From positions 384,001-448,000 of the forward strand of contig DXJO01000010.1 in the NCBI GenBank assembly GCA_019057475.1: 64,000 nt of DNA. Reading direction: 5' to 3'. This document shows, in pieces, positions 937 to 13,562 of the stretch (position 1 is the first letter of the stretch; each line of letters opens with the position of its first letter). The notes under the pieces were generated by a model. That model saw only the letters and a program-made list of their open reading frames with translations. It did no database searches and was not told where the DNA came from. The DNA comes from Candidatus Thorarchaeota archaeon. Its GTDB lineage: Archaea > Asgardarchaeota > Thorarchaeia > Thorarchaeales > Thorarchaeaceae. Position numbers and translations under genes: made by a program.

Positions 937-1103
937 AGGGTACAGATTTTAACGGTACACGAGTAGAATCTCCCCTCATAGACCCTATTCCACCAATATC
1001 TCCCATCTTACAGACCATTAAGTATTCTAACAGCACAATACAGGTTTTAAGCACGCATTCGGGACTATCCTATCCTAGAGCCCCCTCTCCAATAGTCTAA
1101 GTA
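937..1103. promoter_or_regulatory. Multipartite conserved cis element, copy 1 (divergent intergenic region)
   Basis: AGGGTACAGATTTTAACGGTACA (937-959), GTATTCTAA-N5-CAATA (1022-1040), CTATCC (1065) and AAGTA (1099) all recur at the same offset (+12459) in 13396-13562. Confidence 0.7.
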
Positions 1104-1154
1104 TATTGTGTTCATCCCTACTGCAAGGATAACCTACGTTGAGAGGGTGAAGGA

Positions 1155-1754
1155 ATGCAGATTGACCTGCCGGCAGCACTGTTTGCAAATCTAGTGTTCT
1201 CTGTCAAGATTGCACCTGGGATACTGGCAATTGTGACAGTCGTCAGAGGACTGATACTCCTAAGTGGACAGAAGCGAGAGTTCGAGGACTGGACACGCAA
1301 CTCACTGATGTCAGCCCTATCGATCATATTCCTCCCCGGCACGCTAGCCTACATCGGGATAAGGTACACAGTAAGCAGAGCCTTTGGCATAGATGTGGAG
1401 AACATCGGCGGCTCGACAACCTATGGGGAGATCAACCTCTTCCTGAAGGTGGAACGTCCACCTCGGGTAGTGATTGTGCTATCTGCCCTGTACATGATAG
1501 TGGTGATGTCGGTGTTTGTTGCACTATCGCTGATTCTCCTGCCAGCGTTACTGTTCTTCCAGAACATGCCGGTTGTGCTGTTCTGTTGGTACGTGGCGAT
1601 AGGCGTTCTTTTCAACATCTCATTGAGGAGCGGGGATGTTTCACTTGTGGTCGCATCCCTACGCAGAAGGCCGCGTGCTGGTGCACTTGAGTTCATCGCT
1701 GTGATGGTGGCGCTTGTCCTTCTCTATACGCAGGTTGTGGGGGTGCTCGTTTGA
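1155..1754 (+). CDS. Multi-pass membrane protein, possible degenerate M50/zincin-like peptidase homologue
   Basis: 199 aa with about 5 hydrophobic helices. FLPGTLAYIGIRY…FGIDV sits where LPG-x-x-x-HExxH…LG-x-x-V is expected. GAGGGTGA SD-like sequence upstream. Confidence 0.7.
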   Translation: MQIDLPAALFANLVFSVKIAPGILAIVTVVRGLILLSGQKREFEDWTRNSLMSALSIIFLPGTLAYIGIRYTVSRAFGIDVENIGGSTTYGEINLFLKVERPPRVVIVLSALYMIVVMSVFVALSLILLPALLFFQNMPVVLFCWYVAIGVLFNISLRSGDVSLVVASLRRRPRAGALEFIAVMVALVLLYTQVVGVLV

Positions 1755-1762
1755 GCAGCAAT

Positions 1763-1881
1763 AAAAAAGTCCCTGGCTCGGATCACAGGTCTTGGTGTTT
1801 GCCCTATTTATTCCAAGACCTATCTCTGCACGGAATACCCCCTTCTTTCCGAGCCAAGGACACCTCTTTCGCTCAGGAGGT
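1763..1881. ncRNA. Putative structured RNA / cis-regulatory element
   Basis: Outer stem 1769-1782/1848-1861 (13/14 Watson-Crick), inner stem 1787-1795/1813-1821 (9/9), an A6 tract at 1763-1768, and a hairpin at 1862-1881 that includes the GGAGG SD. Confidence 0.55.
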
Positions 1882-1890
1882 AGTTGGTAG

Positions 1891-11731: not shown

Positions 11732-11763
11732 AAGGCTAGTTCCTTCTCATGATTGATTCCGAC

Positions 11764-12456
11764 CTATCTCTCTCCATAGATGCTATTCCATACCCTGTTG
11801 GTCTGCTCTTCGGTTGCCCCAATGGTCTTGAGGTCTTTCTTCGCAGCCTCGCCCCGTTTCATCTCCAGAACCAGTAGGAATAGGTCGTGTTGCACTTTCA
11901 GGCTGCTCTCTCTTGCGCTGTTGATCACTGTGGGAGTCTTCTCCCGCTCGAAGAACCGGGCGCGTGCCTCACGAGGCTTGATGGGCTCTATACTAACCAG
12001 TCTGAGGGCCTCGGCCTCTCCGTCAAGCTGGGATAACATAATCCACAGGTCGGCATCCTCCTTGTGAGCAAAGAGCCGAAGGTACGGTTCATCTGACTCA
12101 TCGTTCTCTGCAGTGGCAAGGAAGACCATGTCCATCTCGATGTCGATATCACCGTACATCCTTGTGTTCCTTGCCTTTTTGAAGACCTCTTTTGCGACCC
12201 TTGCCTGCTCCCTGCGATGGGACATCTTCACCATCCACTGCATGACAACTTCCACTTGCTGACCATTATCCACCCTGCTTTTCAGGAAGTGGACCCTTTT
12301 GCCATCATAGTCCAGCCGCCATGTGGTCGTGAACACTGTCTTGTTATCCTCTCCCAGACCGCCATCAACTTCAGTGATGGTTTTAAAAGTGTCTGCTTTG
12401 CTCGACTTGATCTCTGTGATAGAAGGTCTTACTACGGGCCTCGATTGGGTTGGCAT
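11764..12456 (-). CDS. Hypothetical protein
   Basis: 230-aa ORF co-oriented with, and 32 bp upstream of, the 663-aa gene. No recognised motif. Confidence 0.7.
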   Translation of the reverse strand: MPTQSRPVVRPSITEIKSSKADTFKTITEVDGGLGEDNKTVFTTTWRLDYDGKRVHFLKSRVDNGQQVEVVMQWMVKMSHRREQARVAKEVFKKARNTRMYGDIDIEMDMVFLATAENDESDEPYLRLFAHKEDADLWIMLSQLDGEAEALRLVSIEPIKPREARARFFEREKTPTVINSARESSLKVQHDLFLLVLEMKRGEAAKKDLKTIGATEEQTNRVWNSIYGER

Positions 12457-12566
12457 ACCCCATAATGTGCTTCCACTCCGTAAAAAGTAGCACGGTCACT
12501 CTGGTAGGATTGAGCAGGCTACAACTGGGAGAGAAGAGGAGGCTCAGATGATGGAGCTACTTGCTC

Positions 12567-13265
12567 CTACAAGATGTCTGGTGGGGGGCCAAGAGCTGCG
12601 CCACAGCTTGAGCAGAATTGGGCATTCGGAAGACGTAGGTGTTGGCCGCAGTGTGGGCAATAGTTCGTCCTCACCCGCCCAGATGTATGGGCTTGCTGGG
12701 ATGGAGGCTGTACGTACTCCGGCACTTGCTTCCTCGTCTTCGTGCGCTTTCCCACGTAGTGAAATACTACTGCAATCCCTACGATTACCAATGCGAGAAG
12801 GCCTAGACCTGCCATCCCTAACAATGTGCTAGATGGCGATGTGGGCGACCGAACCTCGACAGTCCCTTCAACATGTTTCCTAGTGAACCAGTTGTCATTG
12901 TAGAACACAACCCGCCACTCACCGTCTGAGGGCACACTGAAGCTGGTTGAGTAGCTTCCCACGTTCTCATGCAACACAGAAACTGTCACGCTATTCCCGT
13001 CACTCCAGAGGTCGTAAGTCTCACCATCACAAATGAAGAAGTCGATGTCTGACCCCGATGTAACCTCAAAGTCTACGTAGATCACATCACCCTCATCAAG
13101 CTGGGTCTGGTAGAAGCTATACCATGATCGTTGGTCTAGCCATATGTCAACATCTGCAAGAGGTCGCATATCGTTCTCTTGAGCTGGTGCCGCAGCTTGA
13201 ACTAGCACAGGCGCTATGGCGAAGACCACTAGAATGCATGCGATGGTTTCCCTTTTCACGGACAT
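12567..13265 (-). CDS. Type I membrane protein: GOLD (emp24/p24)-like ectodomain, TM helix, cytoplasmic double zinc ribbon
   Basis: Signal peptide from MSVKRETIA; GDVIYVDFEVTSGSDIDFFI…GEWRVVFYN…KHV; TM helix; CPHCG…FCSSCG. Confidence 0.75.
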   Translation of the reverse strand: MSVKRETIACILVVFAIAPVLVQAAAPAQENDMRPLADVDIWLDQRSWYSFYQTQLDEGDVIYVDFEVTSGSDIDFFICDGETYDLWSDGNSVTVSVLHENVGSYSTSFSVPSDGEWRVVFYNDNWFTRKHVEGTVEVRSPTSPSSTLLGMAGLGLLALVIVGIAVVFHYVGKRTKTRKQVPEYVQPPSQQAHTSGRVRTNYCPHCGQHLRLPNAQFCSSCGAALGPPPDIL

Positions 13266-13395
13266 GTCCCACCTTAGTCCAAGAGAGTGTATCACCGGAA
13301 TAAGTAGCTTCTCTTGACAGACCCCCTAGCCATATGCCCGCCCTCAAGAACACCCACTAATGACCCAACCTGAAATCGATGCCTTTAGGTTGAAC

Positions 13396-13562
13396 AGGGT
13401 ACAGATTATCACGGTTCATGTATGCAAGAAGCCGACAGAAGGGCGGTGGGGGCCTATGGAGGCCTAAGAATTCTCAAGATGTATTCTAAACCCGCAATAG
13501 GACTCCTTGTACCTCTTTAGGTTCTATCCGCCCTTTATCAGTTTCAACCGACACTTCAAGTA
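13396..13562. promoter_or_regulatory. Multipartite conserved cis element, copy 2
   Basis: AGGGTACAGATTATCACGGTTCA (13396-13418; 20/23 identical to copy 1), GTATTCTAA-N5-CAATA (13481-13499), CTATCC (13524), AAGTA (13558). Confidence 0.7.

Follow-up and report, generated by a model that had tools for sequence, protein, structure and literature searches.

A gap-free multi-block module in a genomic island of a Thorarchaeota archaeon, probably a composite promoter of a small regulon

INTRODUCTION

Archaeal regulators of the Lrp/AsnC (FFRP) type bind several phased sites, wrap about 100 bp of DNA, and can activate transcription through recruitment of the TATA-binding protein (TBP) (PMC2995911). Ptr2 of Methanocaldococcus jannaschii, Ss-LrpB of Sulfolobus solfataricus, and FL11 are the systems used here for comparison; their characterized sites are imperfect palindromes of 13 to 17 bp with an AT-rich center that lie two or three helical turns apart, center to center, with the activating site a few base pairs upstream of the transcription factor B (TFB) recognition element (BRE) and TATA box (PMC2995911). 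A common hexanucleotide motif is likewise found in the UV- and DNA damage-inducible promoters of the Sulfolobales, including those for ups pili and ced DNA import (PMC5817253). Here, we describe a module of about 170 bp made of short conserved blocks at fixed spacing, two copies of which (A and B) lie in a 64,000-nucleotide stretch of a Candidatus Thorarchaeota archaeon (GenBank assembly GCA_019057475.1, contig DXJO01000010.1, positions 384,001 to 448,000 of the forward strand), hereafter the window. Asgard archaea are mostly uncultured, and to our knowledge next to nothing is known of their gene regulation.

The module resembles the Lrp/AsnC systems in several respects. A putative regulator with helix-turn-helix (HTH) and RAM domains is encoded beside its targets, several sites would be bound on one face of the DNA, and at least about 100 bp would be engaged. 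A weak promoter aided by an upstream activator is proposed here as well, and autoregulation through a divergent gene is possible. In contrast to the regulators of those systems, the candidates at this locus are 582 to 663 amino acids (aa) long, roughly fourfold the normal length, and have extensive additional N-terminal regions; the main box, of 20 bp, is asymmetric, the blocks are 34 to 85 bp apart, and no conserved site abuts the BRE. The block distances, the asymmetric box, and the lack of a BRE-abutting site therefore make the likeness to Lrp systems a working resemblance rather than demonstrated membership. As with ups and ced, a private cis motif joins genes for adhesion, DNA transfer, and DNA repair, the adhesin, ATPases, and RadA/XPD/XPG paralogs of this locus being functionally parallel. 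The phylum and the motif are different, however, and a 170-bp multi-block module stands here in place of a hexamer near the core promoter. No homology to Ups or Ced proteins was found beyond a P-loop match of 30 bits (cut-off, 600), and induction by DNA damage would be pure analogy. Our overall conclusion is that the module is probably an activator-dependent composite promoter that defines a small regulon and is bound by Lrp-type regulators encoded in the same movable genomic island.

RESULTS AND DISCUSSION

The module forms a small, dedicated family

Each copy of the module starts with a 20-bp box, AGGGTACAGAtTaTcACGGT, here called box 0, and positions within the module are counted from the start of this box. 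A search with the box pattern identified four copies in the 3.34-Mb assembly (96% complete), all of them on contig C42, which carries the window, and within 32 kb. Copies A (window positions 937 to 1105; nhmmer E value, 9e-36) and B (13396 to 13564; E value, 1e-37) are on the plus strand, and copies C (C42:366001, plus strand) and D (C42:365699, minus strand) form a divergent pair about 18 kb upstream of the window. Nothing beyond these four was retrieved from the whole genome by nhmmer with a 14-sequence profile. Orthologous copies are present in three congeners; those of copy A were found in G004, G005, and one metagenome contig, and those of copy B in G001 and G004. Two congeners, G004 and G005, additionally carry a fifth type, E (L124, G004:C46:20001-25090; L027, G005:C123), which was not found in the genome studied here. 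A metagenome scan for box 0 gave 41 matches, with the whole module on three contigs only, all of known types. In other genera, box matches with two mismatches were no more common than those to a reversed-pattern control, and a literature search found no paper describing the module. The family is thus small and dedicated, with four copies in this genome and a fifth type in congeners.

The original prediction was based on copies A and B, to which the searches above add two copies in the genome as well as the orthologs in congeners. Its central observation, an ungapped match of window positions 937 to 1103 to positions 13396 to 13562, was reproduced, with 79 of 167 positions identical (20 of the 23 first-block positions and 59 of the remaining 144). 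Pairs of random upstream regions from the same genome share 36.4 ± 6.0 identities over 144 nucleotides (nt), which places the A/B value at z = 3.8. The similarity is confined to register 0, with scores of 26 to 43 at offsets of ±1 to 8, and the 23-mer pattern had no chance matches in 100 shuffles. Also as predicted, GTATTCTAA-N5-CAATA at +85, CTATCC at +128, and AAGTA at +162 stand in register in A and B, and copy A has a C-rich first spacer and copy B a G-rich one. CTATCC is common to these two copies but is not found in C, D, or E.

Conserved blocks are held at fixed distances

Alignment of the five types (A to E) required no gaps from position 0 to about +170. Box 0 (937 to 956 in copy A, with the A-specific variant ATTTTAAC; 13396 to 13415 in copy B) is followed by three further blocks. 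The first, cC.CATAa.Gcc, spans +38 to +50 (975 to 987 in copy A), with CATA at +41 and CA.A invariant in the five types. The second, (G)TATTCTAA, spans +85 to +104 and reads (g)taTTCTAAa followed by aATAg, with TTCTAA invariant in all five types; it lies at 1022 to 1041 in copy A and, as GTATTCTAA-N6-AATAG, at 13481 to 13500 in copy B. The third, tt.AA(g/t)(t/a)AT, spans +157 to +168 and is found at 1094 to 1105 in copy A, with the ATG at 1155 following after 60 nt, and at 13553 to 13564 in copy B. The block centers are about 34, 50, and 68 bp apart, and 85 bp, or about eight helical turns, separate box 0 from the +85 block. Apart from GATTATC, box 0 has no dyad symmetry, and ACnG is repeated in it 10 nt apart. 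The +85 block contains a GTATT-N10-AATAC dyad whose 5-nt arms match fully in A, at 4/5 in B, and poorly in C, D, and E. Every copy is oriented toward a downstream gene (A1, B1, C1, and GH3 for copies A, B, C, and D, respectively). The start codons lie at +206 to +237 in A, C, D, and E, and that of B1 lies at +427 from box 0 of copy B rather than at about +220.

The conservation of these blocks exceeds chance expectation. Outside box 0, 15 columns are invariant across the five types, against 0.68 expected (maximum of 6 in 5000 random draws), and the mean pairwise identity is 0.41 compared with 0.253 ± 0.013. Selective constraint is also apparent among congener orthologs, in which the variable-site rate is 1% for box 0, 3% for +157 to +168, and 11% for the +85 block (zero for its TTCTAA core), against 16 to 23% for the spacers. 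Substitutions in the spacers are saturated, yet no insertion or deletion was found across ten pairwise comparisons. From this lack of indels, we infer that block spacing is under selection, which is an interpretation of the alignment and not a measurement. Indel-free alignment over 170 nt with freely varying spacers makes the module a clean natural case of a spacing-constrained protein-DNA architecture. The idea of a complex shared promoter or DNA platform, which the original prediction drew from fixed block spacing and free spacers, agrees with these data.

The last conserved block resembles a weak TATA box

Promoter words for this genome were derived from 1241 upstream regions on the basis of crude gene calls. 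They include CTTAAA, TTAAAT, TTATAT, TTTATA, and similar words, and they peak 41 to 60 nt before start codons. The +157 to +168 block occurs as CTTAAGATAT, GAATATAG, CAATATAC, and AAGTATAT, the poorest form being AAGTACTAT; copy B carries TTCAAGTACTAT, the least TATA-like of the five types. The block at +158 resembles the promoter words CTTAAG, AATATA, and AGTATA, and it stands 48 to 79 nt before start codons, near the genome peak of -60 to -41. TTCTAA, the core of the +85 block, does not belong to the general promoter words (rank 902; z = 1.1), and neither does box 0. The possibility raised at the outset that the blocks reduce to ordinary BRE and TATA elements therefore applies to AAGTA at +162, a weak TATA-like core promoter, and does not apply to the 20-bp box or to the +85 block.

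A different function for the same blocks would be that of an RNA, either a shared 5' leader or riboregulator or a small RNA, transcribed in either direction from a promoter at +85. On the minus strand, the +85 block reads TTTAGAATA, which is close to the TATA words of the genome. AGGGTAC (0 to +6) can pair with GTATTCT (+85 to +91), and in copy B a long conserved stretch (13565 to 13822, plus strand; about 95% identical in congeners) separates the module from the start of B1. However, RNAalifold, applied to both strands of the five types over three sub-ranges, gave approximately zero energy and no covariation, and the spacers vary freely in composition without compensating partners. There was no match in Rfam at an E value of ≤1, and the leader of copy B is less structured than its shuffles (fold z = +2.1). 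We regard an RNA function as quite improbable, and positions 13565 to 13822 are probably untranslated and without structure. Leader peptides were also considered for this stretch; its open reading frames of 74 and 98 aa were unconvincing, with many nonsynonymous changes by eye.

Two candidate regulators are encoded in the island

Two genes encode candidate binders of the module. A0 (3 to 920, minus strand; 582 aa) is transcribed divergently from copy A, and the 3' part of the gene, encoding the C-terminal part of the protein, lies upstream of the window. A3 (9740 to 11731, minus strand; 663 aa), behind the adhesin gene A2, is a paralog of A0 in the C-terminal Lrp-like domain (25% identity over 167 aa; E value, 2e-5). 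Sequence searches of Pfam, NCBIfam, and PDB returned nothing useful for either protein; the Lrp module of A0 was identified by fold search alone. An alignment of 66 A0 relatives, found among 1.8 billion representative proteins, was supplied to AlphaFold2. The C-terminal 188 aa were modeled with a predicted local distance difference test score (pLDDT) of 87.8, and the top >30 PDB matches in Foldseek were full-length Lrp/AsnC chains at probability 1.0. The label "Lrp-like" given to these proteins earlier thus holds for A0, which has a C-terminal Lrp/AsnC fold (HTH plus RAM), and A3 shares the domain by sequence. Residues 1 to 394 of A0 (L033:1239-2420) are helical (model pLDDT, 79) with no clear sensor fold; weak matches to full-length Lrp/AsnC chains over about 155 columns were obtained in this part (Foldseek E value, 0.016; probability up to 1.0). 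Judging from the model, A0 may consist of two tandem Lrp-like modules behind a helical domain, and A0 and A3 are probably the best candidate binders of the module.

The arrangement at copy A may also link A0 to its own expression. The A-specific variant of box 0 reads TTAAAA on the minus strand (952 to 947), 27 to 32 nt before the TTG of A0. TTAAAA is enriched in promoters of this genome (z = 11.2), and it is possible that this hexamer is the TATA box of the divergent gene. The variant is kept in all A orthologs, which makes autoregulation of A0 plausible.

The layout recurs in other genera with different letters

The gene order GH3, C1-C14, A0, A1, A2 (and A3) is kept in genomes of two other genera, G024 (genus g4) and G013 (genus g8), with A3 syntenic in G024. 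Across genera, the enzymes are about 40 to 58% identical and A0/A3 25 to 34%, A0 itself reaching only 25%. G013 carries GGTGTTACGGCTGTGCAAATG and ATACGTTTTGCGTAGCAGTT, exactly 75 nt apart, before GH3, C1, and A1, and G024 carries AAAAAAGCTACTnAAnG and CCTTTnCGTTATTAnGATT, 72 nt apart, before the same three genes. The letters of these boxes are entirely unlike those of the genus studied here; the layout is alike. The first box stands about 170 to 240 nt from the start codons in both genomes, as it does in this genus, and in G013 the second box is about 30 nt from a TATA-like stretch. The box-to-box spacing is constant within a genome and varies between genera (85 nt here versus 72 to 75 nt) by about one helical turn, if box 0 is taken as the counterpart of their first box; alternatively, the interval from +85 to +158 (73 nt) may correspond to the box pair of G013 and G024. 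An inverted-repeat search before GH3 in 30 genomes, at a threshold of 16/20, found little outside this genus because the box letters differ.

In an ungapped register scan, the D and C promoters were significantly similar in genera g1, g4, and g5 but not clearly so in the others. In G013 (contig C4, locus L129), the divergent promoters of GH3 and C1 do not differ over about 80 nt, even in the spacers. This identity points to recent gene conversion between module copies in that genus, a process that would help to change the letters in concert. Co-evolution of a regulator with its site could be studied on these genus-specific letters.

The syntenic clusters also bear on which protein binds. The promoter module could be correctly identified and its binder be another protein: B2, whose tandem HTH units would sit on an asymmetric site, the 146-aa Zn-ribbon protein of the operon behind copy C, or an unlinked factor. 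Tandem domains are a better match than a symmetric dimer for an asymmetric 20-bp box in which ACnG occurs twice, 10 nt apart; B2 carries several HTH units, and the Zn-ribbon protein has a weak match to the TFIIB zinc ribbon (E value of 4.5e-4, below the cut-off). B2, however, was not found in the G013 and G024 clusters, in which the box architecture is present, whereas A0 and A3 keep their syntenic place there and, like the boxes, are fast-evolving. A weaker consideration is that A0, if it is a tandem (pseudo-dimeric) Lrp-like protein, would fit an asymmetric site as well. Another binder therefore seems to us unlikely.

A proposed activator-dependent promoter and the points against it

In the composite promoter that we favor, the weak TATA-like block at +157 to +168 would be the core promoter, with transcription predicted to start near +190 and leaders of about 15 to 45 nt (about 230 nt for copy B). 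Box 0, the block at +38 to +50, and GTATTCTAA...AATA at +85 would be three protein-binding sites at fixed distances from this core. Oligomers of A0, of A3, or of both would fill the three sites on a single scaffold, bending or wrapping the DNA and aiding TBP and TFB at the weak TATA box, and we accordingly envisage activation rather than repression. Five operons would be switched together: the GH3/ThiF operon, the 15-gene operon with RadA, XPD, helicase, and XPG, the operon of a membrane protein and a giant adhesin, and those of two paralogous membrane ATPases resembling DNA motors. Overlap of box 0 of copy A with the A0 promoter region would provide for autoregulation of A0. A DNA-exchange or damage-type program, and with it the nature of any inducing signal, is suggested by analogy only.

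Several observations weigh against this proposal. Box 0 lacks a dyad, and only two or three of the five types have a good one at +85, unlike the 13- to 17-bp palindromes bound by Lrp proteins, and the distances of 34, 50, and 68 bp between conserved blocks are not two or three helical turns. The last conserved block before the TATA-like block ends at +104, about 53 bp upstream of it, whereas known Lrp activator sites abut the BRE, and the gene behind copy B begins 427 nt from its box. Both the start site and the assignment of the TATA box are putative; the +85 block, or TTTAGAATA on its reverse strand, might be the core promoter instead. B2 and the Zn-ribbon protein are possible binders, and the concerted change of letters could stem from gene conversion rather than co-evolution.

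If the composite promoter is real, the module offers a concrete regulon of five operons, together with its DNA target (20 bp plus phased blocks) and a named pair of candidate regulators. Regulation, in addition to position, would then tie the membrane DNA-motor-like ATPases to the giant surface protein and the spare recombination machine, which strengthens the case that they act jointly, possibly in DNA exchange.

Genes and operons behind the modules

The original prediction had placed the surface-protein operon and the ATPase operon in one set. This grouping is retained, and the set also takes in a 15-gene recombination operon and a GH3/ThiF operon. Copy D heads an operon of GH3, ThiF, and TPR proteins. 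The 15-gene operon headed by copy C encodes a second RadA (the housekeeping RadA is encoded elsewhere in the genome), the small Zn-ribbon protein, XPD, a DEAD helicase, an AAA protein, a RadA-like protein, XPG/FEN, and a histidine kinase, with membrane proteins interleaved among the enzymes. The kinase is a soluble HisKA/HATPase protein (L006:16172-16975, equivalent to C42:382172-382975) encoded by the last gene of this operon in the present genus, and no such kinase was found in the syntenic G013 and G024 clusters.

Behind copy A, A1 (1155 to 1754, plus strand) encodes a 199-aa polytopic membrane protein with six helices, and A2 (1891 to 9717, plus strand) encodes a 2608-aa surface protein, the adhesin, with Ig-like domains of the Big_1, MG2, and filamin types and an alpha-alpha toroid. 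Behind copy B, B1 (13823 to 17020, plus strand) encodes a 1065-aa membrane-anchored P-loop ATPase of the FtsK/HerA/TraD/CedD kind with a hydrophobic N terminus, and B2 (17035 to 21408, plus strand) encodes a 1457-aa protein with several HTH units (matches to HTH_3, HTH_17, HTH_23, and related families). The two window copies had been described as each heading a pair made of a membrane protein and a very large protein. This stands, with the correction that B1 is itself the membrane protein behind copy B, its N-terminal 130 aa being hydrophobic. A LAGLIDADG protein had also been assigned to the ATPase operon, but Pfam gives no LAGLIDADG domain in B2 at an E value of ≤0.01. Type E heads a paralog of B1 that is 38% identical to it (G004) and lacks the N-terminal 155 aa, which are the hydrophobic part. 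The G004 counterpart of B2, encoded second in the B operon (L125, G004:C28; 1522 aa), matches B2 over residues 1 to 851 only, and its C-terminal part differs.

All four copies lie in a segment inserted relative to congeners

Contig C18 of G004 is collinear with C42 up to position 360767 and resumes at 405468, and the intervening 44.7 kb are absent there. This segment (C42:360768-405467; right end near window position 21467) holds all four module copies, and it is polymorphic within the genus. Relative to the congeners G004 and G003, it sits inside the methylmalonyl-CoA mutase gene; the mutase-epimerase pair is uninterrupted in G003, and the displaced native 3' part of the gene is found at 21408 to 22508 (plus strand) in the window. 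The left mutase copy is chimeric, with residues 62 to 205 being 97 to 100% identical to those of G004 and residues 206 to 557 only 33 to 77%. G005 shares the right-hand end, where the 3' end of B2 abuts a partial mutase gene. The D-C-A cluster is old and is syntenic at other sites in other genera, and the B module of G004 lies between other genes.

An inserted segment with repeated boxes could indicate that the boxes serve site-specific recombination or DNA transfer, as res, att, attC-like, or oriT sites do, and allow operons to be inverted, excised, shuffled, or mobilized; a res/oriT-like site was among the original suggestions. Box 0 is long (20 bp), asymmetric, and nearly invariant, and it is present as direct and inverted copies within a single island. 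This island is itself an insertion, the B module stands in another context in G004, and B1 has a TraD/FtsK-like P-loop. Searches of the scanned island genes with Pfam and NCBIfam, which left several proteins unassigned, however detected no integrase, resolvase, transposase, recombinase, or relaxase domain. In the congener comparisons, no rearrangement junction fell on a box: homology of the G004 B module to this genome begins 63 nt upstream of box 0, and the insertion ends inside the mutase gene. The inverted pair C/D has the same orientation in three congeners, and a recombination site would not be expected to keep a fixed distance to start codons or to have conserved blocks downstream. We give this explanation very little credence. 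A replication origin at the C/D pair was also considered and rejected, as the 300 bp between the boxes are not AT-rich and the boxes keep fixed distances to the genes.

A more far-reaching proposal is a self-contained, horizontally movable island of about 45 kb, with the module as its control switch, devoted to regulated, mating-like DNA exchange between cells. The adhesin would make contact, the membrane ATPases would transport DNA, and a private recombination machine would complete the set, while giant tandem Lrp regulators would wrap the promoter of about 170 bp and co-evolve with it by genus. We consider this speculative and doubtful as a whole; if true, it would place a mating-like system in close relatives of eukaryotes.

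Elsewhere in the window, positions 40122 to 45923 contain about 15 direct repeats of 288 nt (96 codons) that are 60 to 82% identical, presumably Ig-like repeats of another giant surface-protein gene.

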